The translations under genes and the position numbers were made by a program. Shown piece after piece: positions 6,949 through 64,000 of a stretch of DNA of 64,000 nucleotides; position 1 is the first letter of the stretch; each line of letters begins with the position of its first letter. Location of the stretch: NCBI GenBank assembly GCA_037443365.1, contig JBBIOM010000007.1, positions 19,303 through 83,302 on the forward strand. Direction: 5' to 3'. The notes beneath the pieces are model-generated. The model did not search any database, was not told the DNA's origin, and was given only the letters and a program-made list of their open reading frames with translations. Source of the DNA: Armatimonadota bacterium. Its GTDB lineage: Bacteria > Sysuimicrobiota > Sysuimicrobiia > Sysuimicrobiales > Humicultoraceae.

Positions 6949-7025
6949 CGGGGCGTAGCGCAGCTTGGCAGCGCGTCTGGTTTGGGACCAGAAGGTCGGC
7001 GGTTCGAGTCCGCCCGCCCCGACCA
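6949..7025 (+). tRNA. tRNA-Pro (anticodon TGG)
   Basis: It folds by hand as a 77-nt cloverleaf: acceptor CGGGGCG/CGCCCCG, D arm GCGC..GCGC, anticodon stem TCTGG/CCAGA with loop TTTGGGA, T arm GGCGG-TTCGAGT-CCGCC, discriminator A and an encoded CCA. Confidence 0.93.
6981..7025 (+). repeat. attL-like copy of a 45-bp direct repeat (the 3' part of tRNA-Pro)
   Basis: TTTGGGACCAGAAGGTCGGCGGTTCGAGTCCGCCCGCCCCGACCA recurs at 8448-8492 with a single mismatch (44/45). Confidence 0.8.
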
Positions 7026-17776: not shown

Positions 17777-17852
17777 GCGCCTGTAGCTCAGCGGATAGAG
17801 CGGCTGCCTTCTAAGCAGCGGGCCGGGGGTTCGAGTCCCTCCAGGCGCGCCA
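17777..17852 (+). tRNA. tRNA-Arg (anticodon TCT)
   Basis: A 76-nt cloverleaf: acceptor GCGCCTG/CAGGCGC, D arm GCTC-AGCGGATA-GAGC, anticodon stem GCTGC/GCAGC with loop CTTCTAA, T arm GGGGG-TTCGAGT-CCCTC and an encoded CCA. A TGcTATACT extended -10-like element lies at 17755-17763. Confidence 0.92.
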
Positions 17853-29039: not shown

Positions 29040-29118
29040 GGTGGCCGTAGCTCAGCCTGGTTAGAGCGCCTGGCTGTGGCCCAGGAGGGCGCGGGTTCGA
29101 ATCCCGTCGGTCACCCCA
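29040..29118 (+). tRNA. tRNA-His (anticodon GTG)
   Basis: The cloverleaf has the His-specific extra 5' G(-1) opposite discriminator C. Acceptor GTGGCCG/CGGTCAC, anticodon stem CCTGG/CCAGG with loop CTGTGGC, T arm GCGGG-TTCGAAT-CCCGT and an encoded CCA. Confidence 0.92.
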
Positions 29119-46361: not shown

Positions 46362-46368
46362 CAGGGAC

Positions 46369-47447: not shown

Positions 47448-47807
47448 ATGAGCACGAGTCTGAGAGGCATCCTCCAGGGACTTGCAGGCGACGATACGCG
47501 CGCCGTTGTGCTGCTCGACGCCGACGGCCGCGCGATCGAGACGGTCCTCAAGGGCGGCGCCGGCGATCCAGGCATAGTGGCTGGCGACCTGGCCGCGCTG
47601 TTCAAGGTCGGCGCCTACTGCGGCCGCAAGATGGACGGCGGCGAGATCGACTACCTCACCGTGACCACCGAGAGCCTGGCCCTCCTCGTGGTGGCGGTTG
47701 GGCCGGCGCACATCCTGGCGGCGGTGCTCGAGGCGGGCGGCAACATCGCGCGTGCCCGGCTGGCGGTACGCCGGTGCAAGGCCGAGATCATCGAGGCGCT
47801 GGGATGA
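47448..47807 (+). CDS. Roadblock/LC7 (MglB-like) domain protein
   Basis: 119 aa. It reads [25 protein letters not shown]...[43 protein letters not shown], the typical Roadblock/LC7 pattern. Confidence 0.85.
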
Positions 47808-48787
47808 AGCGCGCCCTGATCCTCGCGGCTGCCTGGATCGCCGCGGTCGGGCTCATGCAAGGAGCCGCATACGGCGCCGGGCCTGCCTCCGACCCGCTGC
47901 GCGTCGGCGCGGCGCTGTTTGCGCGGGGCGACCTCGCGGGCGCCGAGGCCGCCTTCGTGCGCGCGGTGGGGCGGCATCCCGGTTCGGCCCACGCGTGGCT
48001 TTGGCTCGGCGTCGTGCAGTTCCACGCGGGCGCCACGGAGCGCTGCGAACAGTCGCTCGCCCGGGCCGCCCGGCTCTCACCGCGCAATGGGATGGTGCTG
48101 CTCTGGTGGGGTCATGCGCTGGTCTTGGTGGGGCGCCCGGTCGAGGCCGCGACCGCCTTTCGGCACGCCGCGATCACCCAGGCGCCCGATGCCGTGCGTG
48201 ATCTGGCCCGTCAGGCGCTGCGGGCGTTGGGGCCGCTCCCACAGCCTGCCGGTCATCCTGCTCCTGACGGCGCGCGATCTCCGACCGCGCCGTCCTGGGT
48301 GACGGATGTTGCCAGCTACGGCGCCATCGCCCGCTTCTACAACTCCGGCCTTACGCACGGGCAGACGGCCGCGATCGGTCAAGCCCTGCTCGGCTACAGC
48401 AGGCACTTCAACGTGGATCCCCGGCTGGTGGTTGCGCTCGTGGTGGTCGAGTCGGGATTCCAGCCGGCGGCGCGCTCCCGGGCGGGCGCGATCGGGCTGG
48501 GACAGCTCATGCCGGACACCGCCCGCGCGATGGGAGTGGACGCTACCGACCCTGTGCAGAATCTCTACGGCACCATCCGGTACCTCCGCGGCAACCTGGA
48601 CCGGTTCGGATGGGACAGGGCGCACCTGGCGCTGGCCGCCTACAACGCGGGCAAAGGCGCCGTGCTGAGGCACAACGGAATCCCTCCGTACGCCGAGACG
48701 CAGTGGTACGTGGCGAACGTGTCCGGACTCTACCGGCGGCTTCTGCAGATTCCCGGTGGGAGTGGGGAGCTATCCGGGCGTCTCTAG
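47804..48787 (+). CDS. Secreted TPR plus SLT-domain lytic transglycosylase
   Basis: ATG 47804 overlaps the Roadblock stop (ATGA). It has a signal peptide, a TPR-like region, and an SLT catalytic region: [27 protein letters not shown]...[10 protein letters not shown]...ALAAYNAG. Confidence 0.85.
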
Positions 48788-48840: not shown

Positions 48841-48938
48841 GGCAACCCTCGAACAGGCAAACCCGCCGCGAGGCGGGGACGCAAAGCCAACGGGGCCTGG
48901 AGGCCCGAGTCCGCGGGCTCCGGGCCGGCCGGGTTGCC
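48841..48938 (+). promoter_or_regulatory. c-di-GMP-I (GEMM-I) riboswitch-like aptamer, copy A
   Basis: GGCAACCC-tcgaaca-GGCAAACC-CGCC-GCGA-GGCG-GGGACGCAAAGCC-aaCGGGGCC-tgga-GGCCCG...GCCGGGTTGCC. It has the two conserved GEMM-I cores, a GNRA-capped hairpin between them and an outer 8-bp helix (48841-48848 with 48931-48938). An SD-like AAGGGGAG follows 2 nt later. Confidence 0.78.
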
Positions 48939-49674
48939 GAAGGGGAGACGCTTGGAATCCCTTCGTGTCCAGAGCTTTGAGGCGATTGGGGCTGGGGCGA
49001 TCGTCTTCGCGGGTTTGTGCGGAGACGAGGTGGACCTGGAGCGGCTTGTGGCGCACCTGGCCGCGCGCGGCTTTGACGGCGGCGTGCTCGTGGGCGATGA
49101 GGCGACCGAGGGAGTGCTCTGGTTCCGGGACGGCGCGCCGCGCGAGGCATGGGTGTTCGAGGCGGGCGACATCCCGGAGATGCTGCCCGATGGCCCTGGT
49201 CGCGAGCGCCTGAGTGCACTGGCCTCGCGAGGCTGCCGGATCAGCGTCGTGGCGTGCGAGCCGCCTGACGAGCCGCCGGAACTGGCGGACTGGTCCGACG
49301 CACAGCCCCCCGAGTACGGGACGGCCGCTGAGCCGCCTGCCCACCCGTGGCCCGCGATCCTCGAACGCATGGCGGTGCGCATCGCGCGCAGCCGCGGGCC
49401 CCGCCTGGCGAGCCATTTCGCGGCGGCCCTGGTCAGGGCGCTGGAGCGTCACGGCGGCGGCATGGACGGCGAGCGCGTGCACGCCCCGCAACTGCCCGAG
49501 TCGACTTGGCGCGCGATAGTGGAGGTGGCATGCGCGCCGATAGTGACGATCGCCGGGCGCGCCTTCGCCGACCGGACCATAGCAGCCTGCGAACGCGACG
49601 TGCGCGATGCCGAAGGGATGCCAGAAGCGGTGGCCGAAGGCGAGGGGCCGGCCGAAGGCGAGGGGCCGGCATGA
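48934..49674 (+). CDS. Hypothetical protein (no recognisable family; DUF4388-like flavour in the N-terminal part)
   Basis: 246-aa ORF. TTG 48934 lies inside the riboswitch outer helix, so in-frame TTG 48952, downstream of AAGGGGAG, may be the real start. It reads LERLVAHLAARGFDGGVLVGDEATEGVLWFRDGAPREAWV, and the C-terminus carries a duplicated EGEGPA. Confidence 0.55.
   Translation: MPKGRRLESLRVQSFEAIGAGAIVFAGLCGDEVDLERLVAHLAARGFDGGVLVGDEATEGVLWFRDGAPREAWVFEAGDIPEMLPDGPGRERLSALASRGCRISVVACEPPDEPPELADWSDAQPPEYGTAAEPPAHPWPAILERMAVRIARSRGPRLASHFAAALVRALERHGGGMDGERVHAPQLPESTWRAIVEVACAPIVTIAGRAFADRTIAACERDVRDAEGMPEAVAEGEGPAEGEGPA
49633..49668 (+). repeat. Perfect 2 x 18-bp tandem duplication inside the CDS
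   Basis: GCCGAAGGCGAGGGGCCG occurs twice in a row, encoding AEGEGP AEGEGP at the C-terminus of the 48934 gene. Confidence 0.9.
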
Positions 49675-50423
49675 GGCCGCCCCCCTGGCTGCCCAAGGCG
49701 GTCATCGGCCTCATGGCAGGGGCGGCCGGCATCACCTACGGCCTGGACGGCGGCGGCGCTCACGTGCAGGCGGCGCGGGCCGCGGTCGGGTCAACGCTGC
49801 AACTCCTGGCGCCGCTCGTGGCCGGGTTCGGGTGCCTGATGGCGGCTGCGGCCTATGCGCGTGGTGACCGCGAGCGCGCGGTGTGGGTGATCGCGGCGTG
49901 GGCCACGCTGGCCTGGGCCGCCGGGCGTGCCATCTCCGCGGCCGGACGGTGGGGCGGGGGCGGCGCGGCGTACTCCCCGTCGGCGGCCGACGCGTTCTAT
50001 GTCGCCTTCTTCGTGCTGCTCAGTGCCGCCGTTTGGATGGAGGCCCGGCTTGTCTGGCCCGTGCTGGAACCGCGGATCCGCAGGAATCTGGTCGTGTACG
50101 GCGGTCTGATATGGGGGTCTGTGGTTGTCGCGACGCTGGCATTGCTCGCGCGCGGCGAGGCCCCGGTCTTCCAGAAGATGCTGGCCGCCTTCTACCCTGC
50201 GGCCGCGATGCTGCTCGTACCTGCCTGCCTGGTTCCTGCCGCCGGCTTCAGTGGAGGCACCTCCGCCTACACGTGGCTCACCCTGGCGATGGCTGCGTTG
50301 TGCATGGCCGGGGCGAGTCTCCTGCATCCGATCGTGCACAGGGCCGACGCGCTGTGGGTGGCGGGCTTCATCTTCCTGGCGGCCGGTGCCTTCTGGCAGC
50401 GCGCCGCGCTGGAGGAGGTCTAG
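49671..50423 (+). CDS. Polytopic integral membrane protein, unknown family
   Basis: ATG 49671 overlaps the upstream stop (ATGA). It is about 250 aa with roughly 6-7 hydrophobic segments and has no soluble domain. Confidence 0.6.
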   Translation: MRPPPWLPKAVIGLMAGAAGITYGLDGGGAHVQAARAAVGSTLQLLAPLVAGFGCLMAAAAYARGDRERAVWVIAAWATLAWAAGRAISAAGRWGGGGAAYSPSAADAFYVAFFVLLSAAVWMEARLVWPVLEPRIRRNLVVYGGLIWGSVVVATLALLARGEAPVFQKMLAAFYPAAAMLLVPACLVPAAGFSGGTSAYTWLTLAMAALCMAGASLLHPIVHRADALWVAGFIFLAAGAFWQRAALEEV

Positions 50424-50428
50424 CTGCC

Positions 50429-51169
50429 GTGGCCGCCGCTGGTGTGGCCGGTCTGCTGCACTACGGGTGGACACGGGGCTTTGCCGCCGTGGTCGAGGCG
50501 CCTGCCCGGCGAACCGCGGCGGTCTTCGGTCCTGCTGGCTGGGTGCAGGGCGATCCCTCGTCCGTCCTGCCCGCCGGCGCACCGCCTGGCGCAGAGGTGG
50601 TGCGCCTGGCGCTCACCGAGCGGCTGGCCGATCAGATAGCCGGCCTGCAGTTCTCCATTGGCGGTCTGCACACCGAGTTCGTGCGGCTGCGCTCCTTGTT
50701 GGGACGGCTGTGCGCGCAGGGCGCCGACAGCGTGGTGCTCGTCCTCGGCGAGAGGCCCGCGGTCTTCGCGGTGGCAGACGGCGAGATCACCTCGGCCGGG
50801 CTGGATGCGACACCCCCCGAGGAAGCCCGAGGATGGATCGTGGTCTTCTCCGGCAAGGTCAGCCTGCCCGCGGCCGAGGCCCCGGGTGCTGCCGATGAGA
50901 CCTACTTCGTTCCCAGCAACAGCCGGGACTCACTGCCCGAGGAGGTGGCGACCGCCATCCTGAAGGTGGCCGGGCCCGCGGGCGAACGCGTGCCCGGTCT
51001 GCTCGACGGCACGCGCACGATTGGGGTGGTCGCAGGCATGGCCGGGCTGAGCGCCGGACAGGCGCGCGCAGCCGTGGGCGTGCTGGTCGCGCACCGGCTG
51101 GCCTTCAGGTGCGTCAGCCGCCCCAAGGCCGGCTCGCGTACGAAGCAGGGCAGTTCAGCGCAACCCTGA
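50429..51169 (+). CDS. Hypothetical protein, unknown family
   Basis: GTG 50429 lies 10 nt after GGAGGAGG. It reads LRSLLGRLCAQGADSVVLVLGERPAVFAVADGEITSAG, similar in pattern to the 48934 product. The C-terminal part LLDGTRTIGVVAGMAGLSAGQARAAVGVLVAHRL looks winged-helix-like. Confidence 0.5.
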   Translation: MAAAGVAGLLHYGWTRGFAAVVEAPARRTAAVFGPAGWVQGDPSSVLPAGAPPGAEVVRLALTERLADQIAGLQFSIGGLHTEFVRLRSLLGRLCAQGADSVVLVLGERPAVFAVADGEITSAGLDATPPEEARGWIVVFSGKVSLPAAEAPGAADETYFVPSNSRDSLPEEVATAILKVAGPAGERVPGLLDGTRTIGVVAGMAGLSAGQARAAVGVLVAHRLAFRCVSRPKAGSRTKQGSSAQP

Positions 51170-51250: not shown

Positions 51251-51336
51251 AACCCCGAAAAGGGCAAACCCATCGTGAGGTGGGGGCGCAAAGCCTCGGG
51301 ACCAGCAGGTGTGGTCAGCCGGGCTGCCGGAGGTTG
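51251..51336 (+). promoter_or_regulatory. c-di-GMP-I (GEMM-I) riboswitch-like aptamer, copy B
   Basis: aaccccgaaaaGGGCAAACC-CATC-GTGA-GGTG-GGGGCGCAAAGCC-tCGGGACC...CAGCCGGGCTGCCGGAGGTT. The architecture matches copy A, with one deviation in the second core (GGGGCGC instead of GGGACGC). A hairpin follows (51344-51351 with 51362-51369, containing CCUCCC) that could act as a weak terminator or as an anti-SD against AGGAGG at 51381-51386. Confidence 0.68.
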
Positions 51337-51394: not shown

Positions 51395-52210
51395 ATGGCG
51401 GCAAGACCGCCGCAACGCCAGGCAGTGGTGCCGGAGCCCCGCGGCGCAGAGGCCTCCGGCCCCGACGACGCCGACCTGGCGCTTGAGGAATACGCCGCCA
51501 CGCGCAGCCCGCAGGCGCAGGAGCGCGTCGTCGCCGCCTGCACGCCACTGGTGCGGCGCATCGCCGCCGAGTTCGCGTACTCGGGAGTCCCGACCGAGGA
51601 TCTGATCCAGGTGGGCTACATCGGGCTGCTCAACGCCATCAACGGGTTCGACGCGGGCCGCGGCGCGAAGTTCGCCACCTACGCCGGCTACCTCGTACGC
51701 GGCGAGATCCGTCACTACCTGCGCGACCAGCGGGACACGATCCGCAGACCGCGCTGGTTTCAGAGGCTCAACACCCGCATCGAGGAGACCATCAGCGCGC
51801 ACGTCAGCGAGACCGGGCGCTTCCCCGGTCTCGACGTCCTGGCGCGCGCTCTCAACGTGGAGGAGGAGGGGCTCCTGGAGGTCCTGCGCGCAAGGGAGAT
51901 CCTTCGCACGGTCTCCATCGAGGCCGACGACGATGGGGCCGACCTCCGCGTTGATCGCGACCGGATACGGCACCGCACGCACGTCAGCTTCCAGCTTCCG
52001 ATCGAGGACCGCGTCACGCTGATGGAGGCGCTGGAGTCGCTCACCGCGCTGCAGCGCAAGGTCGTTTACTACCTTTTCTACACCGACCTTACACAGATGG
52101 AGGCCGCCAAACAGATCGGCATCTCGCAGAAGCACGTGTCGCGCGTGCTTGCCGCCGCGCTGAACAAGCTGCGCGGCGCGCTGGGCGCGCCGTCGCACGG
52201 GGCTCTGTAG
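51395..52210 (+). CDS. Group-3 sigma-70 family factor (SigB/SigF/SigG-like)
   Basis: Region 2 reads DLIQVGYIGLLNAINGFDAGRGAKFATYAGYLVRGEIRHYLRD. Region 4 reads LQRKVVYYLFYTDLTQMEAAKQIGISQKHVSRVLAAALNKLR. AGGAGG lies 9 nt upstream of the ATG. Confidence 0.9.
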   Translation: MAARPPQRQAVVPEPRGAEASGPDDADLALEEYAATRSPQAQERVVAACTPLVRRIAAEFAYSGVPTEDLIQVGYIGLLNAINGFDAGRGAKFATYAGYLVRGEIRHYLRDQRDTIRRPRWFQRLNTRIEETISAHVSETGRFPGLDVLARALNVEEEGLLEVLRAREILRTVSIEADDDGADLRVDRDRIRHRTHVSFQLPIEDRVTLMEALESLTALQRKVVYYLFYTDLTQMEAAKQIGISQKHVSRVLAAALNKLRGALGAPSHGAL

Positions 52211-52229
52211 GATAGGGGAGGAATCCGGG

Positions 52230-52586
52230 ATGTCGCAGTTGAAGGACTTGCTCGCCGAACTGACCAGGGTTGACGGCGTGGTGGCGGCCATGATCGTGGG
52301 CCGTGACGGGTTCGTCGTGGAGGGCCTGACGACGGAGGAGCGGGTGGACCTCGAGGCGGTCGGCGCGGTCGTGGCCAGCAACATAGCGGTGGCCGACTCG
52401 ATGGGCAAGGAGATGGGCCGCGGCTCGCTGCGCACGATGCTGCTGGAGTACGACGAGGGCCCGGTGGCCGTCGGGCCGGCCGGGGCCGACGCCGTCATCG
52501 TCGTGGTGGGTACGCGGCTGGCCAACCTGGGGCGCGTCCGCCTCGAGATGCGGCGCAACAGCCAACTCGCGGCCGCGCTGGTCTAG
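52230..52586 (+). CDS. Roadblock/LC7 (MglB-like) domain protein
   Basis: 118 aa. It reads LAELTRVDGVVAAMIVGRDGFVVEGL...LRTMLLEYDEGPVAVGPAGADAVIVVVGTRLANLGRVRLEM and begins 19 nt after the sigma gene. Confidence 0.85.
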   Translation: MSQLKDLLAELTRVDGVVAAMIVGRDGFVVEGLTTEERVDLEAVGAVVASNIAVADSMGKEMGRGSLRTMLLEYDEGPVAVGPAGADAVIVVVGTRLANLGRVRLEMRRNSQLAAALV

Positions 52587-52681: not shown

Positions 52682-53125
52682 ATGACGATGCGGCGTCAGT
52701 CGCGGCCCGGCCGAGCCAGGGGCGAGGCAGGGTTCACATACCTTGAGTTGCTCGTTGCCCTCTCGCTCTTCGCCGCGTTCTCGGTGATCCTTCTCCAGAC
52801 ATTCATCGTCGGCATGGCGCATGCCGGCCGGGCCAACGACCGCGCGGCCGCCACTACCCTCGCCGTTCAGGTGATGGAGCAGATCCGCGCCAGCGTTAAC
52901 CCGGTGGAGATGGTGGGCTTCACGGACCTTGCGCGCTCGCCGCTCCCCCTGCCGGATCCCTACACCGGCGTGACCAACCCGACCCCCCACACGTTCCAGG
53001 TGGCCGTGGACGTCACCCACGATACGAACCTGCGCCTCACCACCGCCACCGTCCAGATCTACAGGCCCGCCGATCTGAACGGCGCGCCGTTTGTCACGCT
53101 CACGACGGTGCTGGATGACAAGTGA
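52682..53125 (+). CDS. Prepilin-type N-terminal cleavage/methylation domain protein (pilin or PilV/GspI-like minor pilin)
   Basis: A charged leader is followed by G|FTYLELLVALSLFAAFSVILL (Glu at +5). The protein is 147 aa. Confidence 0.8.
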   Translation: MTMRRQSRPGRARGEAGFTYLELLVALSLFAAFSVILLQTFIVGMAHAGRANDRAAATTLAVQVMEQIRASVNPVEMVGFTDLARSPLPLPDPYTGVTNPTPHTFQVAVDVTHDTNLRLTTATVQIYRPADLNGAPFVTLTTVLDDK

Positions 53126-53702
53126 GATTCGCGCCGCGCCAGAGTTGCCGCCCCTGCAAGGAGACCGTGGCGTCACCCTGATCGAGCTGGTCGTGGCGCT
53201 GGGCCTGCTGATGCTCGTTCTGGGGAGCATCTACGCGATCGTGGCCGTCGGGGGCAGGTCCGCCCGCACAACCAACGACTTCCTCCAGGCCCAGGCGCAC
53301 GTGCGCACGGCCCTCGACGTCATGGTGGACGAGATGCGCTGGGCAGAGGCCGTCACATGCGCGTCGCAGACGGCGGTCACGCTGGCCGTGCCGCAGGACA
53401 CGCCCTTCTCTCAGACGAGTCCCTACCGGGTGACCTTCGCGCACGACGCCAGCGCCGCGACGCTCGTGCGCAGGCAGGACGATGCCGGAAGCGGGTGCCC
53501 GAGTTCGGGCGTAGGCAGGCCACTGGCGTACTTCATTGGCGCAGGCGGCCTGGCCTTCGAGTACTTCGACGCCAACGGCGACACGCTGGGAACGACGCCC
53601 GGCGACCTGACGCCCATCGCTCGCGTCAGGATCAGGGTGACCGTCACGCGGGATCACGTGAGCCGCACCTTCGCAGGTGATGCCGCACTGCGCGCCCGCT
53701 AG
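53115..53702 (+). CDS. Prepilin-type protein (PilW/GspJ-like minor pilin)
   Basis: ATG 53115 overlaps the upstream gene by 11 nt. It reads G|VTLIELVVALGLLMLVLGSIYAIV (Glu +5), with DVMVDEMRWAE typical of PilW-like proteins. Confidence 0.75.
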   Translation: MTSEIRAAPELPPLQGDRGVTLIELVVALGLLMLVLGSIYAIVAVGGRSARTTNDFLQAQAHVRTALDVMVDEMRWAEAVTCASQTAVTLAVPQDTPFSQTSPYRVTFAHDASAATLVRRQDDAGSGCPSSGVGRPLAYFIGAGGLAFEYFDANGDTLGTTPGDLTPIARVRIRVTVTRDHVSRTFAGDAALRAR

Positions 53703-53725
53703 GCGCGGGCAAGGGGTGAGAAGAG

Positions 53726-55816
53726 ATGCTGCGCCTGACTAGATGCCAACAGGGGATGGCGCTCGTCGCGGTACTGGCCGTCATCCTCATCCTGTCGCTT
53801 CTGGGCGCCCTCATTCTCTATCTGAGCGGGAAGGAGATGGGACTGAGCGCGCTGCGGGTCATCGGCGCGCAGAGCATGTACATCGCCGAGGGGGGCGCCT
53901 ATTCGGGCCGCGCCGCGCTCATGGCGCTCATGGGCGCCGATCCGATCGGGCAGGTCACCGTGGACCCGTCCCTGGACAGCACGACCCTGCTCGTCTGGTA
54001 TGGAGGCGCGACCGGGGAGGTGGGCCTCCAGAACTCGCTTCGCATCATTGACTTCCTTATCCTCGACGGCCGGCGCTTCACCCTCAACGCGACCCCGTCC
54101 ACGGACTCGCTCGTCTTCCACGTCAACTGGGGCCTGCCCGAGCCGCACCGGAAGCTGCAGGCGGCCGCTGGGCTACCGCCTTCCAACCCGCTGGGGGAAG
54201 GGAGCCACAGGACTACGGTCACGCTCAGGCGGCGGCTCGCATCGCCCGAGAGCGCCCCGAACGAGCCGGCCCGGTACATCCAGCGTATGGGCGGGGCCGG
54301 GGGCGACCACGAGTACGAGTTCTACTACTCCTACGAGATCACGAGCGACGGGCGCGTGAACCCGCAGGCCAGGCGCAGGATCGCGCTGCGCGGCGACTTC
54401 AGCATCTACCTGCGGCGGGATACCTTCGCCAAGTACGCGCTGTTCTCGCACGTGCACACCGGACCCGCGGGCGAGGCGCTCTGGTTCGCCGATATGTCCA
54501 TGTACGACGGGCCCGTGCACACGAACACCGAGTTCCGCTTCGCCTACTTCCCGAAGTTCGGCACCCCTGACAGCGGGATACCCTGCCGGGAGGCGAACGC
54601 CAGGACCACGCGCCTGACCAGCGCCTGGCGGACGGCCTGGTTCTTCAACCGCGGCAGCCCGCGTCAGATAGAGGCCAACGAGAACGTGGTCAGCGGACAG
54701 CGCCGCGACGCACCGGTGTTGCCCGACTGCGACACCAACAGCAGCAACGATCACGACAACGCCCCGGCCGACTTCACGCGCGGGGTGGCCACGATCCCCA
54801 TTCCCTCCAACCCGTTCAGCCAGAAGGGCGTGACCGTGGGACGCGACCCGTCGGATACCAGCGCGGTCCCCAACCGGCTCATACGGGAGGCGGTCCCCGA
54901 ACTCCCGGACAACTCGAGCGCGGTTCCCTCCGGGATATACGTACCGGTTCGAGACGACAACGCCAACGGCATCTCCGACCCCGACGAACCCCTCTCAGGC
55001 GGCATCCTCGTGCAGGGCGATCTGACAAGCTTGGTGCTCGGCATGACCGACAGCGGCGCGTCGCCGGGCGCCTGCAGCCAGAGCGCGGGGTCGCCGGGCG
55101 GCTGCGCGCGTTACACCCTGGTCCAGGGGACTCAAACCGTCACGGTGGTCGTGGACCGCGTGACGCAGCGCACCACGGTCACCAACACGGCCTGGCCCTC
55201 GGGCAACCAGACGCGGACGTTCGCCGGCGTTCCCAAGGGATGGCAGGGCCTGGGCAACGCGAACGCGGCCATCATCTACGTCGAGGGAGCGATCCTCTCG
55301 CTGCACGGCACGCTCGAGGAGAAGGAGCAGACCACGATCGTTGCCTCCGGGCGCATTGACATCACCAACCACATCCGCTACGAGGCGCCTCCTGTGGTCA
55401 CCAATCCCGAGCACAACCCGATCAACCTGCTCGGGATATACTCGCCCAACAACGACGTGCGCTTCGTCACCAACCCCAACGACCCGAGCACGCGCGACCT
55501 CGACATCCACGCCGTGATCATGGCGGGCAACCTGGCGGACGGGTACAACAGCCGCGTGTTCAACGCGACGTGGAACGACAATCCCCCGCGGGGCGAGATA
55601 CGCCTGATCGGCGGGCTGATCCAGGAGTACCTGGGCGTCTTCGGGGTCATGAACACCGCCGGGCAGCTCATCAGGGGCTACGGCTCGTACTTCAGGTACG
55701 ACCGCAGGATGAACCGCGGGTTCTCGCCGCCCTACTTCCCGACGATGACCCTGTATCAGGTGGAGGCGCGCAACTTCGCCGGTCGGCGGCCCACGTGGCG
55801 CGAGGGGTCCCCTTGA
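53726..55816 (+). CDS. Large PilX-N-terminal-like pilus protein (possible tip or adhesin component)
   Basis: It begins QQG|MALVAVLAVILILSLLGALILYL (PilX_N-like, no Glu +5), followed by about 650 aa of Gly/Asn/Thr/Pro-rich, beta-rich sequence with no further motif I can name. Confidence 0.6.
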   Translation: MLRLTRCQQGMALVAVLAVILILSLLGALILYLSGKEMGLSALRVIGAQSMYIAEGGAYSGRAALMALMGADPIGQVTVDPSLDSTTLLVWYGGATGEVGLQNSLRIIDFLILDGRRFTLNATPSTDSLVFHVNWGLPEPHRKLQAAAGLPPSNPLGEGSHRTTVTLRRRLASPESAPNEPARYIQRMGGAGGDHEYEFYYSYEITSDGRVNPQARRRIALRGDFSIYLRRDTFAKYALFSHVHTGPAGEALWFADMSMYDGPVHTNTEFRFAYFPKFGTPDSGIPCREANARTTRLTSAWRTAWFFNRGSPRQIEANENVVSGQRRDAPVLPDCDTNSSNDHDNAPADFTRGVATIPIPSNPFSQKGVTVGRDPSDTSAVPNRLIREAVPELPDNSSAVPSGIYVPVRDDNANGISDPDEPLSGGILVQGDLTSLVLGMTDSGASPGACSQSAGSPGGCARYTLVQGTQTVTVVVDRVTQRTTVTNTAWPSGNQTRTFAGVPKGWQGLGNANAAIIYVEGAILSLHGTLEEKEQTTIVASGRIDITNHIRYEAPPVVTNPEHNPINLLGIYSPNNDVRFVTNPNDPSTRDLDIHAVIMAGNLADGYNSRVFNATWNDNPPRGEIRLIGGLIQEYLGVFGVMNTAGQLIRGYGSYFRYDRRMNRGFSPPYFPTMTLYQVEARNFAGRRPTWREGSP

Positions 55817-56244
55817 GCCGCCGCCGCTCGCAGGAAGGCTTCGGCCTGCTCGAGACGGTCGTCGTGGCGGTGCTGGTCGTCATCCTGCTGACGATGGGGA
55901 TGTCGAGCTGGCGGGGGCACGTGGCGCAGCAGCGCCTGCGCTACGGCGCGGCCCAGGTGGCCTCGGACCTACGCCTGGCCCACGAGCGCGCCAAGGCCGA
56001 GCGCACCCCGTACACGGTCTCCTTCTCGGCCTCGTCGGGGTCCTACGCGATCGCGCGCACGAGCGGGGGGTTTCTCGAGAACGCCATGTTGCCCGACGGG
56101 GTAACCGTGGCCGAGACACTCGTCATCACTTTCTCGGCCTTCGGCGCCCCGGGCGCCGAGTGTACGCTCACCGTGGGCAATGCCGCGGGGACGGCCACGG
56201 TGACGGTGAGCGAGGCAGGCGGCGTGATCTACCAGGAGAACTGA
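55813..56244 (+). CDS. Prepilin-type protein (GspH/FimT-like minor pilin)
   Basis: The TTG start at 55813 overlaps the upstream stop (TTGA). It reads G|FGLLETVVVAVLVVILLT (Glu +5), and QRLRYGAAQVASDLRLAHERA is typical of GspH/FimT. Confidence 0.75.
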   Translation: MSRRRSQEGFGLLETVVVAVLVVILLTMGMSSWRGHVAQQRLRYGAAQVASDLRLAHERAKAERTPYTVSFSASSGSYAIARTSGGFLENAMLPDGVTVAETLVITFSAFGAPGAECTLTVGNAAGTATVTVSEAGGVIYQEN

Positions 56245-56251
56245 CCGCGGC

Positions 56252-58460
<2,209 letters not shown>

Positions 58461-58465
<5 letters not shown>

Positions 58466-58540
58466 CCCAGCCAGCCGGGGGCTTCCACCACCGGCCCTGT
58501 GGCTTTGCGTCCCCGGATCGCTCCGGGTTTGCCCTTACGG
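58461..58540 (-). promoter_or_regulatory. c-di-GMP-I (GEMM-I) riboswitch-like aptamer, copy C
   Basis: The minus strand reads ccgtaaGGGCAAACC-CGGA-GCGA-TCCG-GGGACGCAAAGCC-aCAGGGCCGG...GGCTGGGTTGCC. The 3' conserved GGGTTGCC (58468-58461) overlaps the first candidate start codon (TTG 58465) of the TPR-PilB gene. Confidence 0.76.
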
Positions 58541-58658
58541 GACTAGTGCACTAAACTTCTGGGTATACTCTAACTTGCCCCTGCAGAGATTGCACCGAGG
58601 GTATCACGGAGCGCGGCTTGGCGCAAGGCCATATTGAGAGGAGTTCCGGGGAGGAATC

Positions 58659-60236
58659 ATGGAGACTTACCAGATGGAGACGCGCCTGCTCTCCGGCCTC
58701 ATCCGAGACCGGCACCTGCTCACGCTGGCGGTCAACGAGGGGTTCCACGTCGACCAGCTCGTATCGCCGCAGGCGCGGCGCCTGGCGAAGGTCACCATTG
58801 ACGCGCACGCGATGACGCCGATCCTCGACGAGGCCACGCTGCGGGCCGAGATGACCGATCGCGGTCTCCTGACCCCTGAGATGGAGCAGTACCTGGCGTC
58901 GGTGCTGCTGCTCCCGCCGCCCAACGCCGGGGACCTTCTTGGCTACGTTGAGGAGCTGAAGGCCCGGGAGAGCCGCGACCTCCTGGCGCGCGTCCACGAA
59001 TCCATCGGGGGCTATCTATACCGCCGTACCCCAGAGCAGGCGGACATCGTGCAGTTCACCACCGACGCGATCCATAATCTGCTCGAGATCCAGCGGCGCA
59101 GGACGCGCCGCCAGGTGGCGCCCATCTCCGAGACGTTCGGCCCGATGATTGACGCCCGGCCCCAGGCGACGAACGGCATCCTGGGCTTCTCGATCAGCCC
59201 GTTTGACCGTCTCAACACCCTGCTCTCGGGTTTGCGGCGGGGCTTCTACTACGGCCTGGCCGGTGCTCCCCGCCGCGGCAAGACCAACTTCGCCCTCGAC
59301 CTGGCCGTGCACGTGGCCGCCAACCACAAGGTGCCGGTGCTGTTCTACACCTGGGAGCAGACCCGCCGCGTGCTGGCGGCCCGCCTGATCGCCAAGGAGG
59401 TGGGCATCAACCCCACCTCGATCCTGGTGGGGAGCAACGGGGACGGCGAGTCCGTGGCCGAGAAGGTGAACGAGGCCCGCGGGCCGCTGGGGCGCTACGC
59501 GCCGTTCCTGTACCTGGTGGAGGCGGGCCGCAAGGAGACGCTCGACCGCATCCGCGCCCACGCCCACAACCTGATGCAGGAGTTCCAGACCACGGACGTG
59601 GTGCTGTTCTTCGACTACCTGCAGAAGATCCCGCTGTCGGCCTACGTGGACGACTGGAAGGCCCGGACCGACATGGTCTCCACCGCGCTGGCCGAGCTGA
59701 GCCTCGAGCTCAACTGCCCGGTCTTCGCGATCTCGCCCCTGGACAAGGAGGGCTGCCGGCTGGACGAGCGGCCGGCCGAGGAGACCGAGATCTTCAACCC
59801 GTTCAACCGGCCCACGATGCACCACAGCATGGGCAGCGGCGATCTCGAGTACGACCTCGACGTCGCCATGGTCCTGGCCAAGGACTGGAAGGCCACGGCC
59901 GACCTGCGGCAGTTGATCGAGTCGCGGGCCAAGGCCGAGGGCTTCGACACCAGCGATCTGCCCAGGGTGGACATCCTCAACCTGTTCGTGGACAAGAACC
60001 GCGACGCGCCAGAGGCGGCCTCCAACATAGTGCAGTACGCGTTCTTCGTGACCCTGAACAAGCTGGTGGAACTGGACTACAAGATGGAGCAGGAGTATCG
60101 CCCCGACTACCAGGGCTTCTCCAAACTCCAGGAGATCTACACGTTCCTGCGCGACCACGGGTTCCGCCCGCAGCGCGAGGCGCCCGCCGCCGCGCGCGTC
60201 GGAGGCGTGGGGGGAGCCGGAGGGAGAAGCCGATGA
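58659..60236 (+). CDS. Diverged DnaB-like protein (DnaB-type N-terminal domain plus RecA-fold ATPase)
   Basis: The N-terminus METRLLSGLIRDRHLLTLAVNEGFHVDQLVSPQARRLAKVTID resembles the DnaB N-domain. Walker A is GLAGAPRRGKTNFALDLA (59262-59285). The Walker B/DnaB box is VVLFFDYLQKI, and it also has PVFAISPL and GSGDLEYDLDVAMVL. A strong SD (GGGGAGGAA) precedes the ATG. Confidence 0.72.
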   Translation: METYQMETRLLSGLIRDRHLLTLAVNEGFHVDQLVSPQARRLAKVTIDAHAMTPILDEATLRAEMTDRGLLTPEMEQYLASVLLLPPPNAGDLLGYVEELKARESRDLLARVHESIGGYLYRRTPEQADIVQFTTDAIHNLLEIQRRRTRRQVAPISETFGPMIDARPQATNGILGFSISPFDRLNTLLSGLRRGFYYGLAGAPRRGKTNFALDLAVHVAANHKVPVLFYTWEQTRRVLAARLIAKEVGINPTSILVGSNGDGESVAEKVNEARGPLGRYAPFLYLVEAGRKETLDRIRAHAHNLMQEFQTTDVVLFFDYLQKIPLSAYVDDWKARTDMVSTALAELSLELNCPVFAISPLDKEGCRLDERPAEETEIFNPFNRPTMHHSMGSGDLEYDLDVAMVLAKDWKATADLRQLIESRAKAEGFDTSDLPRVDILNLFVDKNRDAPEAASNIVQYAFFVTLNKLVELDYKMEQEYRPDYQGFSKLQEIYTFLRDHGFRPQREAPAAARVGGVGGAGGRSR

Positions 60237-60511
60237 TCGTGGACAAGCGCGCGCCCATCTACCCCATTCGCACGGTGGCGCACCTCACCGGCGTGAACCC
60301 CAGGCGCATCCGCGCCTGGGAGGACCAGTACAACCTGTTCGTCCCGGCGCGCACAGGGGGAGGGCACCGGCTCTACAGCGAAGAGGATGTGGAACGCATA
60401 CGGTGGGTCAAGGCGATGGTGGAGCGTGGGGTGAGCCTGCGGGGCATTCAGCGGCTGGTGGAGCGCCCCCGCGCAGTCGAGACGGTCGCCGAGGGAAGGG
60501 GTGCCCGATGA
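60233..60511 (+). CDS. Small MerR-family HTH regulator
   Basis: It reads IYPIRTVAHLTGVNPRRIRAWEDQYNLFVPARTGGGHRLYSEEDVERIRWVKAMVERGVSLRGI. The start overlaps the upstream stop (ATGA). Confidence 0.85.
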   Translation: MIVDKRAPIYPIRTVAHLTGVNPRRIRAWEDQYNLFVPARTGGGHRLYSEEDVERIRWVKAMVERGVSLRGIQRLVERPRAVETVAEGRGAR

Positions 60512-60750
60512 AGGTGGAGCTGGACCGCGAGCAGGTCGTGATCTTCACGCCGTCACACAGGATCGAGGGCGAGCTGCACCTGCCCTCGAGCGCCCGGCTC
60601 TCCGACCGGCTGAACCAGGCCAAGGACTTCCTGGCCATTACCTCGGCGCGCGTCTTCACCCTGGACGACCGTCCGCTCTACGAGGCCGGCGTCGTGTTTC
60701 TGCACAAGTCCTACATCGTGATGCTTATGGAGCGTCATGAGGCCATCTAG
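60508..60750 (+). CDS. 80-aa hypothetical protein, unknown family
   Basis: It reads MKVELDREQVVIFTPSHRIEGELHLPSSARLSDRLNQAKDFLAITSARVFTLDDRPLYEAGVVFLHKSYIVMLMERHEAI. It has an ATGA overlap with merR-like and a 14-nt overlap with pilB. The pattern looks beta-rich. Confidence 0.5.
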   Translation: MKVELDREQVVIFTPSHRIEGELHLPSSARLSDRLNQAKDFLAITSARVFTLDDRPLYEAGVVFLHKSYIVMLMERHEAI

Positions 60751-62446
60751 GAGCCCGACCTCGCGTCGCCGGGTGCGGCTCGGCGAGATCCTGGTGGAGG
60801 CCGGGCTGATCACGAGCGCCCAGCTCGAGAAGGCGCTGTCGGCACAGAACGCCAGCGGCGACCGCCTGGGCAGGGTGCTGGTGAGCCAGGGGCTGACCAC
60901 GCAGGAGGCCATCAGCAAGGCCGTGGCCAGCCAGATGGGAATCGAGTACGTCAACGTGCAGTCCGTAGGGATCCCCGAGGAGGTGCTCACGGCCGTTCCC
61001 GAGTGGCTGATACGGCGCCACCAGGTCATCCCGCTGCGCAGGGAAGGGAACACGCTCGTCGTGGGGATGGTGGACCCCCTCGACGTGGTGGCGCTCGATA
61101 CGGTCCGGCGCGTCGCCAAGCTCGACCTGGTACCGGCCGCGATCACGCCCGAGGGGTTCCAGCACGCCGTCAACCAGTACCCGGCCCTGGAGGGCACCCT
61201 GGACCAGGTCATCCAGGAGATCCGCCCCGCGGACGTGGGCGAGGAGGAGCCGGGCCTCGATCGGCTGCGCGAGATAGTCGAGGACGCCCCGGTCGTGCGC
61301 CTGGTGAACCTGATGCTGGTTCAGGCGGTGCGCCAGGGCGCCAGCGATGTGCACGTGGAGCCGCAGGAGGACCGCGTTCGCATACGCTACCGCATTGACG
61401 GCACGCTCTACGGCGTCATGACCGCGCCCAAGCACGTGCAGGCCGCGACCACGAGCCGCATCAAGATCATGGCCAACATGAACATCGCCGAGCGCCGCGC
61501 GCCGCAGGACGGGCGGATCGAACTGCGCGTGGACAACCGCGAGATTGACCTGCGCGTCAGCAGCGTCCCCACCGTGTTCGGCGAGAAGGTGGTCATGCGG
61601 ATCCTCGACAAGCGGGCGGCGCTGGTCGGCGTGGACAGGCTCGGCCTGTTGGGGCCGGACCTGCCGCGATTCGAGTCGCTGATCGCCAAGCCTTACGGCA
61701 TCATCCTCATCACCGGCCCGACCGGCAGCGGCAAGACCACCAGCCTGTACGCCATCCTCAACCGGCTGAACAAGACCGACGTCAACATAATCACGGTCGA
61801 GGACCCGGTGGAGTACCAGCTCGCCGGCATCAGCCAGGTCCAGATCAACCCCAAGGCCGGTCTGACCTTCGCCACCGGTTTGCGGTCTTTCCTGAGGCAG
61901 GACCCGGATATTATCATGGTGGGGGAGATACGCGACGAGGAGACCGCGCGCATCGCGATCCACGCCGCGCTGACCGGGCACTTGGTCCTCTCGACGCTGC
62001 ACACCAACGACGCGCCCGGCGCCGTGGCTCGCCTCGCGGACATGGGCGTGGAGCCGTTCCTGGTCTCCTCTTCGGTGATCGGCGTGGTCGCGCAGCGCCT
62101 GGTGCGCGTGCTCTGCCCGCAGTGCCGCGAGGCGTACACGCCTCCGGTCGAGGTGCTGGAGCGCTACCGGCTCATAGGCCCCGGCGACCCGCCGCCCGTG
62201 ATCTACCGTCCGCGGGGCTGCGACCGGTGCAACCACATCGGATACAAGGGGCGCATCGGGCTCTTCGAGATCATGGTCATGGACGATGAAGTGCGCGCGC
62301 TCGTCGTGCGGGAGTCCTCGGCGGATGTGCTCAAGGCCGCCGCCGTCGCCGCCGGGATGCGCACGCTGCACCTGGACGGCGTGGCCAAGGTGCTGGCCGG
62401 GACGACGTCGCTCGAAGAACTGCTCCGAGTCGTTTTCGTCGAATAG
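60737..62446 (+). CDS. pilB: Type IV pilus assembly ATPase PilB (GspE family) with intact MshEN-type motifs
   Basis: It has tandem RLGEILVEAGLITSAQLEKALSAQ and RLGRVLVSQGLTTQEAISKAVASQ, a T2SSE_N region and ILITGPTGSGKTTSL (Walker A). It also has FLRQDPDIIMVGEIRD and a tetracysteine motif (CPQCR...CDRCNHIGY). Confidence 0.93.
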   Translation: MRPSRSPTSRRRVRLGEILVEAGLITSAQLEKALSAQNASGDRLGRVLVSQGLTTQEAISKAVASQMGIEYVNVQSVGIPEEVLTAVPEWLIRRHQVIPLRREGNTLVVGMVDPLDVVALDTVRRVAKLDLVPAAITPEGFQHAVNQYPALEGTLDQVIQEIRPADVGEEEPGLDRLREIVEDAPVVRLVNLMLVQAVRQGASDVHVEPQEDRVRIRYRIDGTLYGVMTAPKHVQAATTSRIKIMANMNIAERRAPQDGRIELRVDNREIDLRVSSVPTVFGEKVVMRILDKRAALVGVDRLGLLGPDLPRFESLIAKPYGIILITGPTGSGKTTSLYAILNRLNKTDVNIITVEDPVEYQLAGISQVQINPKAGLTFATGLRSFLRQDPDIIMVGEIRDEETARIAIHAALTGHLVLSTLHTNDAPGAVARLADMGVEPFLVSSSVIGVVAQRLVRVLCPQCREAYTPPVEVLERYRLIGPGDPPPVIYRPRGCDRCNHIGYKGRIGLFEIMVMDDEVRALVVRESSADVLKAAAVAAGMRTLHLDGVAKVLAGTTSLEELLRVVFVE

Positions 62447-62455
62447 GGGGCTGCC

Positions 62456-63637
62456 ATGCACATCGAAGACCTGCTGCGAGAGGTCGTCGCGGCCCAGGCG
62501 TCGGACCTGCACCTGACGAGTGGGATCAAGCCCACGATGCGGCTTTGGGGCCGGCTGACGCCGATGGAGCACCACGAGGTCCTCTCGGCCGAGGACACCT
62601 TCCAGCTCGGCTACAGCATGCTCAACACCTTCCAGAAGCAGAAGTTCGAGAAGTTCTGGGAACTCGATCTTTCCTACGGCGTGCCCGGGCTGGGACGCTT
62701 CCGGGTGAACATCTACCGCCAGCGCGGGGCGCTGGGGATCGCGCTCCGGGTCATCCCCATGTCGATCCCGACGCTCGAGGCGCTCAACCTGCCCACCGTC
62801 CTGAGGGAACTCACGCGCAAGCCCCGGGGGCTGGTGCTGGTGACCGGGCCCACCGGACAGGGCAAGAGCACGACGCTGGCCTCGATGATAAGCTTCATCA
62901 ACTACGAGCGCAGCGCCCACATCGTGACGGTGGAGGACCCGATCGAGTACCTGCACCAGCACGGCAAGAGCATCATCAACCAGCGCGAGCTGGGGTTCGA
63001 CACGCAGTCGTTCCCGGCGGCGCTGCGCGCGGTGCTGCGCGAGGACCCCAACGTCGTGCTGATCGGCGAGATGCGCGACCTCGAGACGATCTCGGCGGCG
63101 CTCACGATCGCCGAGACCGGCCACCTGGTCTTCGCCACCCTGCACACGGCCAACGCCGCGCAGTCGATAGACCGCATCATTGACGTCTTTCCGCCCTACC
63201 AGCAGCAGCAGATCCGCATCCAGATCTCCATGGTGCTCGAGGCCGTGGTGTCGCAGCAACTGCTCCCCAACGCGAAGTACAAGGGGAATGCTGACGCACA
63301 GCCGGCGGCGCGCAAGCGCCTGGGGGGCGCCGTCGGGCAGTCCTGGCCGAGCCTGGACGAGATAGGGCGGGTGCCCGCGGTCGAGATCATGCTGGCCACG
63401 CCCGCCATCCGCAACCTGGTACGCGAGGCCAAGACGCACCAGATCGAGACGGCAATACAGACGGGCGGGCAGTACGGCATGCAGACGATGGACCAATCGC
63501 TGCGCGATCTCGTCCTGCGCAAGATGGTGAGGTTGGACGACGCGCTCAGCCGGGCCATCCGCCCCGATGAACTGCGCAAGATACTGTACGAGGCCGGCGT
63601 TGACGTCGAGCGCGCCGCTCGTAGCGCGAGGGGGTAG
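62456..63637 (+). CDS. pilT: Twitching-motility retraction ATPase PilT (with an internal insertion)
   Basis: It has ASDLHLTSGIKPTMRLWG, GLVLVTGPTGQGKSTTL, VLREDPNVVLIGEMRD, GHLVFATLHT and AIRNLVRE. It is 393 aa, with about 26 extra residues between QQLLP and GRVPAVEIM. Confidence 0.92.
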   Translation: MHIEDLLREVVAAQASDLHLTSGIKPTMRLWGRLTPMEHHEVLSAEDTFQLGYSMLNTFQKQKFEKFWELDLSYGVPGLGRFRVNIYRQRGALGIALRVIPMSIPTLEALNLPTVLRELTRKPRGLVLVTGPTGQGKSTTLASMISFINYERSAHIVTVEDPIEYLHQHGKSIINQRELGFDTQSFPAALRAVLREDPNVVLIGEMRDLETISAALTIAETGHLVFATLHTANAAQSIDRIIDVFPPYQQQQIRIQISMVLEAVVSQQLLPNAKYKGNADAQPAARKRLGGAVGQSWPSLDEIGRVPAVEIMLATPAIRNLVREAKTHQIETAIQTGGQYGMQTMDQSLRDLVLRKMVRLDDALSRAIRPDELRKILYEAGVDVERAARSARG

Positions 63638-63645
63638 GCGCCGCC

Positions 63646-64000
63646 ATGGCAGTATTCCGGTACAGCGCCAAGGACAACAGCGGGCGCCTGATCTCGGGCG
63701 TCATAGAGGCCGACAACGACGCCATGGTCGTGGACCGGCTCCGCGACATGGGCTTCTTCATCACGCACCTGGAGCGCGTGGTCGAGCGCGCGGACGTCTT
63801 CCAGTCGCTGCAGTCCATGTTCGGCATAGCGCTGAGGGACCTGGCGGTATTCAGCCGGCAGTTCGCCACGATGGTGAACTCCGGGCTGTCGCTGGTGCGC
63901 ACGCTCACGATCCTGGAGCAGCAGTCCAGCAACAAGCGCCTGAGGGAGATCGTCGCCGGGGTGCGCGCCGACGTCGAGGCCGGCCGTCCGCTCTCGGACG
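63646..64000 (+). CDS. pilC: Type IV pilus platform protein PilC (GspF family), 5' part only
   Basis: It reads MAVFRYSAKDNSGRLISGVIEADNDAMVVDRLRDMGFFITHLE...LAVFSRQFATMVNSGLSLVRTLTIL and runs off the end of the window. Confidence 0.88.
   Translation, partial: MAVFRYSAKDNSGRLISGVIEADNDAMVVDRLRDMGFFITHLERVVERADVFQSLQSMFGIALRDLAVFSRQFATMVNSGLSLVRTLTILEQQSSNKRLREIVAGVRADVEAGRPLSD

Follow-up and report, generated by a model that had tools for sequence, protein, structure and literature searches.

A DnaB-family ATPase gene conserved beside the motor genes of a type IV pilus cluster in Sysuimicrobiota

The DNA studied here is a stretch of 64,000 nucleotides (hereafter, the window) from contig JBBIOM010000007.1 of an Armatimonadota bacterium assigned by GTDB to Sysuimicrobiota, a candidate phylum also known as CSP1-3 (PMC11604079). 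It carries a type IV pilus cluster in which a 525-aa protein of the DnaB helicase family (designated DnaB-L) is encoded at the head of the motor operon, in front of genes for a MerR-family protein, a DUF6812 protein, PilB (PilB2), PilT and PilC. Directly upstream of DnaB-L, and divergent from it, lies the gene of a second PilB headed by a tetratricopeptide repeat (TPR) domain (TPR-PilB). The preliminary description of this DNA had missed that gene, as well as the riboswitch in the intergenic region that it shares with DnaB-L. Across a whole clade of this uncultured, globally distributed phylum, DnaB-L is the one constant partner of the motor genes, and it has been kept in the motor operon through several rearrangements. 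Its sequence places it on a small, sharply bounded paralogous side branch of the DnaB family which is probably non-replicative. We tentatively propose that it acts with the pilus motor as an accessory or regulatory ring ATPase.

Conservation of DnaB-L beside the pilus motor genes

A scan of GTDB found members of the DnaB-L family in at least 218 species of several phyla. The best 80 loci were fetched and five further contexts were obtained by exact look-ups; neighbouring genes were identified by a tblastn survey and the relationships among members by a neighbour-joining tree. The members linked to pil genes form one monophyletic clade of 40 tips in Sysuimicrobiota and are at least 55% identical to the DnaB-L of the window; two of these tips lie on contigs too short to judge. 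Wherever a locus of the clade has enough flank, TPR-PilB adjoins DnaB-L, and (PilB2)-PilT-PilC are present where the contig reaches far enough downstream. The homologues are named as Armatimonadota or 'bacterium' metagenome-assembled genomes (MAGs), and the close relatives bear the GTDB titles Candidatus Fervidifonticultor, Geohabitans, Sysuimicrobium, Tepidifontimicrobium and 'Armatimonadetes bacterium CSP1-3', members of a lineage known from hot springs and soil.

Three layouts occur in the clade. In the first, that of the window, TPR-PilB on the minus strand faces away from DnaB-L-MerR-DUF6812-PilB2-PilT-PilC. In the second, all genes share one strand in the order sigma-MerR-sigma-x-Robl-TPR-PilB-DnaB-L-PilB2-PilT-PilC, the MerR orthologue between the two sigma genes being 59% identical to that of the window. 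In the third, TPR-PilB is again on the minus strand and the opposite arm is reduced to DnaB-L-PilT-PilC. Since MerR stands elsewhere in the second layout and was not found in the third, and since DUF6812 is missing from both, only DnaB-L accompanies the motor genes throughout, and MerR and DUF6812 are accessory to one sub-clade. The possibility had been raised that the three genes are a single module, a view that this variable placement of MerR and DUF6812 does not sustain. The overlaps described earlier for the window (ATGA, ATGA and 14 nt) are indeed present and recur as -4/-4/-14 nt in 16 species-level loci, so that the junction with pilB is not peculiar to one genome; the ATGA overlap between MerR and DUF6812 is found in 21 of 21 loci, and gaps of 10-54 nt are found in the other layouts. 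The overlapping stop and start codons suggest coupled synthesis of the proteins.

This arrangement was compared with 80 control loci recovered by a metagenome scan with TPR-PilB, whose PilBs are generic (44-59% identity) and do not have the TPR head. DnaB-L, MerR, DUF6812 and the Roadblock gene were found in none of the 80. When just the TPR head was used as query, a protein search returned two fragments. In the literature searched there was no DnaB-like protein tied to PilB, no description of pili in Sysuimicrobiota and nothing on DUF6812, and the supplements of two CSP1-3 papers contain no KEGG orthology (KO) or pilus terms. DnaB-L in a pilus operon has no counterpart in the 80 generic pilB loci or in that literature. 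The observation that the gene heads a pilus motor operon, and is not in a replication context, thus holds for the window and extends to the whole clade.

DnaB-L is a divergent member of the DnaB family

DnaB-L matches the Pfam families DnaB_C (85.7 bits) and AAA_25 (32.8 bits). The replicative DnaB model TIGR00665 aligns its positions 6-418 with residues 4-454 of the protein at 115.2 bits, far from the equivalog cut-off of 385.25, and the other DnaB equivalog models likewise score far under theirs. Two domains can be delimited: a DnaB-type head with a helical hairpin (~1-155) and, after a linker, a RecA-type ATPase (~181-505) that includes a pore insert (362-398). An AlphaFold2 (AF2) model of the protein has a predicted local distance difference test score (pLDDT) of 72.9, and its top 50 Foldseek matches are all DnaB-type replicative helicases, namely cellular DnaB proteins and one phage DnaB-like helicase; full-length DnaB is aligned over ~480 columns with a best E-value of 9e-21. 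The Pfam family of the DnaB N-domain (PF00772) does not match the sequence. The DnaB-type N-domain claimed in the preliminary description is borne out by this structural alignment and by the coverage of TIGR00665, and the structure prediction that it had called for returned a DnaB fold for the 525-aa protein. The two-domain architecture and the fold are those of the replicative DnaBs of E. coli and Geobacillus (4ESV), whereas identity to solved DnaBs is only 20-25%.

The family is separated from other DnaBs by a wide step. An exhaustive HMMER search of 1.84 billion representatives gave 28 matches at E <= 1e-30. Members of full length reach 312 bits or more and 36% identity or more; the next protein scores 104 bits with 26% identity, and ordinary DnaBs lie at ~100 bits or lower. 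The next-best named proteins below this boundary are replicative DNA helicases of Treponema and Myxococcus. Two members, P0155 (728 aa) and P0156 (793 aa), have N-terminal extensions of 210-275 residues in which no Pfam domain is found.

Eighty-three family members were aligned to E. coli DnaB to survey their motifs. The Walker A sequence GAPRRGKT (202-209) and the DYLQ box (319-322) are present, as had been noticed from the window together with the divergence of the helicase motifs. Five residues are invariant in the 83 members, K208, E233, D319, K446 and R448, which correspond to E. coli K237, E262, D343, K440 and R442; at T209 (E. coli T238), 81 members have Thr and two have Ser. These include the catalytic Glu of H1a (E233), the Walker B residue of H2 (D319) and the trans Lys-x-Arg finger (K446/R448). 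As a trans finger makes sense only in an oligomer, we infer that DnaB-L is still a ring NTPase, and both ring assembly and NTPase activity are predicted.

The pore chemistry, on the other hand, appears to have been rebuilt. The residues that contact or sense single-stranded DNA in DnaB, the H3 Gln and the H4 Arg-Glu pair, are lost in every one of the 83 members. At the H3 position (E. coli Q384; position 360 here) there is Pro, Ser, Ala or, once, Gly, and Pro in all the pil-linked members. At the H4 positions (E. coli R403/E404; 391/392 here) Arg and Glu give way to Met, Val or Thr followed by Gly, so that the RESG of E. coli (R403-G406) reads (M/V/T)-G-S/G-G. Between H3 and H4, at the place of the pore loop, there is an insert of ~35 residues (DKEGCRLDERP...RPTMHH), and extra residues follow H4. 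No other segment of the protein is as conserved as this insert (362-398), in which 49% of the columns are invariant, C366 and H388 among them. The AF2 model suggests that it is flexible (pLDDT 35-44), and it keeps the basic residues K363, R367 and R384. The result is a DnaB side branch, so far unnamed, which combines an intact ATPase site with a rebuilt pore.

DnaB-L could still be taken for the replicative DnaB of its lineage, fast-evolving and oddly placed: its architecture is that of a full DnaB, its ATPase site is intact, many members are labelled 'replicative DNA helicase' in IMG, and no canonical dnaB is found among the window genes or in the 168 fetched loci. Nevertheless, this explanation appears highly improbable. 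The deficit of the TIGR00665 score and the loss of the H3 and H4 residues contradict it, there are no replication genes nearby, and the labels of the NCBI pipeline ('DnaB-like helicase C-terminal domain-containing protein' or 'AAA family ATPase') avoid the term replicative helicase. Moreover, the same tight family is found in MAGs of Acidobacteriota and Desulfomonile. Acidobacteriota and the phylum of Desulfomonile have ordinary DnaB, and the occurrence of the family in such phyla therefore argues for paralogy.

Origin of the linkage

The 44 unlinked family members are at most 52% identical to DnaB-L and belong to other Sysuimicrobiota, 'Armatimonadetes' MAGs, Acidobacteriota, Desulfomonile, Eisenbacteria and Limnocylindrales. 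Their neighbours (small unknown proteins, Metallophos, MFS) are heterogeneous and have no common theme. At 14 Desulfomonile-type loci (L073 3224-3943 and 13 others), an unlinked DnaB-L is directly followed by a gene for a 239-aa AAA_21/AAA_15 ABC-type ATPase with PADLOC matches to AriA, PtuA and GajA-type ATPases; this pair may constitute a separate two-gene system that makes use of the same branch of the DnaB family.

Several scenarios may explain how a gene of this family came to stand among pil genes. One possibility is that a stand-alone DnaB-L gene with a housekeeping or repair function landed once between the pilB genes and was kept there by a shared promoter or regulon, in which case it would be co-regulated with the motor and mechanistically unrelated to it. 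The single origin of the linkage in one clade and the heterogeneous neighbours of the unlinked members would agree with this, as would the near-identity of linked and unlinked proteins at conserved biochemical positions. Yet, the adjacency has outlived at least three rearrangements (the divergent or co-directional orientation of TPR-PilB, the loss of PilB2 and the movement of MerR) and is held down to 55% identity, and the overlapping codons suggest coupled synthesis. We regard such a purely regulatory association as unlikely.

Another possibility is that what was captured upstream of pilB is left over from a defence island or from a mobile element, the latter having been raised in the preliminary description; it would be made up of a helicase, a MerR- or excisionase-like helix-turn-helix (HTH) protein and a small open reading frame (ORF). 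Phages and plasmids often carry DnaB-like helicases, the MerR protein has weak matches to phage HTH and excisionase families and to the PADLOC model mad1, and the neighbour of the Desulfomonile relatives resembles defence ATPases. This scenario is largely refuted and there is very little to recommend it. The DnaB-L genes of the clade are monophyletic and their synteny is kept in 38-40 species-level genomes between housekeeping genes; the GC content is uniform across the region (~0.67-0.69). Among 50,697 phage and 72,556 plasmid records, the best matches are generic DnaBs of 22-26% identity; DnaB-L has no PADLOC hit, and in PHROGs it matches only a generic DnaB-like family. No integrase or transposase was seen in the annotated parts of the window, and a repeat scan of positions 58440-58680 returned just short matches at chance level.

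The surroundings are those of an ordinary chromosome: the window includes genes for RNase PH, FeoB, MoxR/BatA, GroEL, a thiolase, an ABC transporter, Aminotran_3, alaS, ruvX and mltG. After this housekeeping block come the GAF-HD-GYP and GGDEF genes and then the pilus cluster. The Aminotran_3-alaS-ruvX flank also precedes the cluster at locus L002, whose DnaB-L is only 56% identical. Three tRNA genes (6949-7022, 17777-17849 and 29041-29115, all on the plus strand) are also present in the window, and the ORFs examined show no sign of an integrated element beside them.

Cyclic di-GMP and the control of the cluster

The cluster is densely wired to cyclic di-GMP (c-di-GMP). The three aptamers of the c-di-GMP-I clan (Table 1) are full-length model matches at or above the Rfam gathering score; two of them are best matched by the 'GGC' variant RF03167, for which c-di-GMP is the presumed ligand. 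The aptamer of the sigma factor leader is kept in ten relatives (L001, L002, L006, L011, L013, L014, L016, L021, L022 and L028) and that of the TPR-pilB leader is kept at the equivalent position in seven (L001, L010, L011, L012, L015, L027 and L070). In the second layout, a single riboswitch heads the whole co-directional array, DnaB-L included. In the window, the TPR-pilB aptamer reaches with its 3' end into the region of the TTG/GTG start codon of that gene (58457-58465, minus strand), and its position suggests direct translational control of TPR-pilB by the riboswitch. Because of this overlap the start codon of TPR-pilB is uncertain: its product has 737 aa if counted from the TTG at 58465 in the ORF listing and 735 aa according to the gene caller.

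The MshEN motif for c-di-GMP is found in PilB2 and TPR-PilB alike. Immediately before the pilus cluster, at 44706-47385, there are a GAF-HD-GYP phosphodiesterase-type gene on the plus strand and a GGDEF diguanylate cyclase-type gene on the minus strand; enzymes that make and break c-di-GMP are therefore encoded beside three riboswitches and two MshEN PilBs. In these respects the cluster resembles the c-di-GMP-controlled type IVa clusters (MshE/PilB with MshEN; GEMM-I riboswitches), with which it shares PilB, PilT, PilC and prepilin-type pilins, MshEN motifs and c-di-GMP-I-clan riboswitches in leaders. It differs from them in that a DnaB-family ATPase, a short MerR protein and a DUF6812 protein are added to the motor operon and in that there are two PilB paralogues, one of them TPR-headed.

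The intergenic region between TPR-pilB and DnaB-L (193 nt) also contains a conserved element, located between the riboswitch and the DnaB-L start (Table 1). In an alignment of 13 loci, its ATA is invariant and the TGGG/T..C block nearly so. Read on the plus strand, the element consists of GGGACT, 19 nt and TATACT, with a GGACTAGTCC dyad in close relatives. It is a candidate for overlapping divergent promoters with an operator, although no site turned up when the intergenic region was scanned for the sigma-70 consensus.

Possible role of DnaB-L in the pilus machine

In the current picture, the motor of a type IV pilus consists of PilB/PilT hexamers that work on a PilC platform and, to our knowledge, a RecA- or DnaB-fold ATPase is part of no described bacterial type IV pilus system. 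Three considerations suggest a role of DnaB-L in or with the pilus machine: three rearrangements have not removed it from the motor module, it appears to be synthesised in a coupled manner with its neighbours, and the c-di-GMP/sigma/Roadblock regulon to which it belongs has no genes of competence, DNA uptake or DNA processing in the annotated parts of the cluster. We thus lean, with reserve, towards DnaB-L being an accessory or regulatory ring ATPase that is co-produced with the pilus motor and acts with it, presumably in physical partnership with PilB, PilT or PilC; the chances of this proposal may be put slightly short of even. In such a mechanism, DnaB-L would be made in step with the motor ATPases and would work with the pilus machine at its cytoplasmic face; the MerR protein would act on the conserved divergent promoter region, and the whole cluster would stand under the c-di-GMP riboswitches, with its own sigma factor.

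DnaB-L would then be the functional counterpart of ArlH (FlaH) of the archaellum. That a RecA-fold ring ATPase can partner a PilB-family motor is already known from ArlH and ArlI (bioRxiv 10.1101/2021.03.19.436134; PMC8978795). Like ArlH, DnaB-L is an ATP-binding protein of the RecA superfamily, in its case with a predicted ring, and is encoded beside a PilB-family ATPase and a polytopic membrane platform. The preliminary description had already drawn this parallel between DnaB-L and ArlH/KaiC, which stands as an analogy of role. It does not extend to the family, because DnaB-L is a full two-domain DnaB of 525 aa without a match to the KaiC Pfam family (PF06745) at E <= 0.01 and ArlH is a single KaiC-type domain. 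The archaellum is moreover a rotary filament, unlike the bacterial pilus, and motor binding, which has been shown for ArlH, is a prediction for DnaB-L. A more specific version of the proposal is that a hexameric ATPase derived from DnaB was taken up by the pilus motor as an accessory ring in physical contact with it, perhaps docking through the TPR head of PilB, and that the remodelled Cys/His pore may act on a target other than a replication fork, a convergent counterpart of ArlH-ArlI. This version is conceivable but doubtful. If it were true, it would provide a bacterial parallel to ArlH and, as far as we know, the first RecA-fold accessory ATPase of a bacterial type IV pilus.

Several results weigh against an accessory function in the pilus. 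None of the 44 other family members has a pil gene within 10 kb. The fold of DnaB-L is that of a nucleic-acid motor, and a DnaB-type ring with K363, R367 and R384 in its pore could act on nucleic acid. Since only two positions are conserved but different between the pil-linked and the unlinked members, the core biochemistry is probably alike in both groups and not specific to pili. Finally, the fact that no canonical dnaB was met in the window or among the 168 fetched loci, already mentioned, has to be counted on the same side.

These points lead to another explanation, in which DnaB-L is a helicase of DNA uptake or transformation that processes the DNA brought in by the pilus, in analogy to RadA or ComM, and would be co-transcribed with the motor only because the two share one uptake pathway. 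Hexameric helicases are indeed members of competence regulons, as illustrated by RadA (PMC5512693) and ComM (bioRxiv 10.1101/147660). Both RadA/Sms and ComM are ring helicase-type ATPases tied to DNA uptake that starts with a type IV pilus, and RadA is of DnaB type and has a motif with KNR that can be compared with the KNR found in DnaB-L (PMC5512693). The DnaB fold with its complete ATPase site and trans arginine finger, the basic residues kept in the conserved pore insert and the presence of a GspH-like minor pilin would all fit such a function, and the stand-alone occurrence of the family elsewhere is what one would expect of a general DNA enzyme. The likeness to these proteins has limits: RadA, which does not have the DnaB N-domain, contains a zinc finger and a Lon-like domain, and ComM is an AAA+ protein. 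We know of no case in which RadA or ComM is encoded inside a pilB-pilT-pilC operon. The loss of the DNA-contacting H3 and H4 residues in all members is difficult to reconcile with a helicase of this kind, and comEA, comEC, dprA and recA are all missing from the annotated genes of the cluster. The cluster is wired instead to c-di-GMP, a sigma factor and Roadblock proteins, which is typical of the control of motility and adhesion, and for its large pilin-like protein no sequence similarity to a solved competence pilin was found. An uptake function therefore seems rather unlikely; were it correct, DnaB-L would be a DNA motor of a new type, one that is coupled to uptake through the pilus.

The MerR-like and DUF6812 proteins

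The 92-aa protein encoded after DnaB-L has a MerR-type HTH (MerR_1, 78.2 bits; cut-off 21.6) and is too short to include an effector-binding domain, which it does not have. Its best NCBIfam match, HspR, reaches 59 bits and remains under the cut-off of 105. The 80-aa protein, first described as unknown, is in fact known to Pfam as DUF6812 (PF20660; 57.8 bits against a cut-off of 27.1, over profile positions 1-53 of 53); 23 close homologues were found. Its AF2 model (pLDDT 74) predicts a small beta-rich fold of five strands and a single helix, and Foldseek gave no significant match to this model, the best one being SmF (E 0.06, TM 0.34). An Sm fold was rejected on account of that weak match and of a different predicted order of strands and helix. 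The fixed ATGA coupling to MerR, together with the overlap with pilB, suggests that DUF6812 is a small partner of MerR or of the pilB product. At locus L006, an 88-aa ORF unrelated to DUF6812 takes its place.

Gene content of the pilus cluster

The features of the locus are collected in Table 1. A Shine-Dalgarno-like purine run precedes every start of the ORFs from DnaB-L to pilC. The cluster contains a type IVa motor set (PilB-type ATPase, PilT, PilC and prepilin-type pilins); PilM/N/O and a secretin were not recognised among its annotated proteins. PilB2 also matches TIGR02533 (638 bits) and the c-di-GMP motif model NF053729 (66 bits; cut-off 38). TPR-PilB begins with the TPR domain, which is followed by a linker rich in Pro and Ala and then by MshEN and T2SSE. 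The pilC gene, truncated by the window end, has a complete equivalent in the same position on contig CAZTQE010000010.1 (L089), where it encodes a T2SSF protein of 405 aa.

Table 1 Features of the pilus locus, in window coordinates
Feature	Position	Strand	Evidence and remarks
c-di-GMP-I-clan aptamer	48846-48941	+	RF01051, 51.1 bits; before three conserved ORFs
c-di-GMP-I-clan aptamer	51254-51332	+	RF03167, 70 bits; before the sigma factor gene
Sigma factor, group-3 type (271 aa), and Roadblock/LC7 protein (118 aa)	51395-52586	+	Sigma70_r2/r4; Robl_LC7 58.9 bits
Pilin-like genes: two prepilin-type, 696-aa DUF4900 protein, GspH-like minor pilin	52688-56244	+	N_methyl motifs; DUF4900 51.4 bits; GspH 23.6-24.3 bits
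TPR-PilB, second extension ATPase	56252-58459	-	T2SSE 485.9 bits; MshEN 82.8 bits; TPR_11 36.1 bits
c-di-GMP-I-clan aptamer	58457-58542	-	RF03167, 59.3 bits (gathering 59), E 6e-14; TPR-pilB leader
Conserved element, ~43 nt	58539-58581	.	GGGACTAGTsC ... TTCTGGG(C/T)ATA(T/C)TCT ... CTTGCCC; between riboswitch and DnaB-L start
DnaB-L gene, 525 aa	58659-60236	+	ATG start; GGAGG 6 nt upstream
MerR-family gene, 92 aa	60233-60511	+	Start overlaps the DnaB-L stop (ATGA)
DUF6812 gene, 80 aa	60508-60750	+	ATGA overlap with the MerR gene
pilB (PilB2)	60737-62446	+	14-nt overlap with the DUF6812 gene; T2SSE 474.9 bits; MshEN 62.9 bits
pilT, retraction ATPase	62456-63637	+	TIGR01420 464.7 bits (cut-off 319)
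pilC, platform protein, N-terminal part	63646-64000	+	From translation; window ends within the gene

The sigma factor and the Roadblock/LC7 protein are conserved upstream members of the cluster in the first and second layouts. The window has two Roadblock/LC7 (MglB-like) genes (47448-47807 and 52230-52586, plus strand); one copy is paired with the sigma factor in most relatives, and no MglA-type GTPase was recognised nearby. The cluster is headed by a gene for a protein with TPR and SLT lytic-transglycosylase domains (47804-48787, plus strand), which would fit an opening of the peptidoglycan for pilus assembly. Behind the first c-di-GMP-I riboswitch follow three consecutive ORFs (214, 250 and 246 aa; 49030-51169, plus strand) without a Pfam match, which may be unrecognised components of pilus assembly. 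ORFs without a recorded Pfam match occupy this position in L001 and L006 as well, and the L089 contig has ORFs of equal sizes.

The 696-aa DUF4900 protein (53726-55816, plus strand) is encoded amid the prepilin-type genes and may be a large tip protein or one associated with the minor pilins. A suspected similarity of this protein and of the GspH-like pilin to competence pilins was dropped after sequence searches of the PDB gave no match. Downstream of pilC, beyond what the window covers, relatives (L001 16230-21575; L006 17659-21680) have a prepilin-type gene and, after it, genes for PMT_2 and GT2 glycosyltransferases, possible enzymes of pilin glycosylation. In L001, the same downstream region also carries HepT/MNT and PIN toxin-antitoxin pairs.

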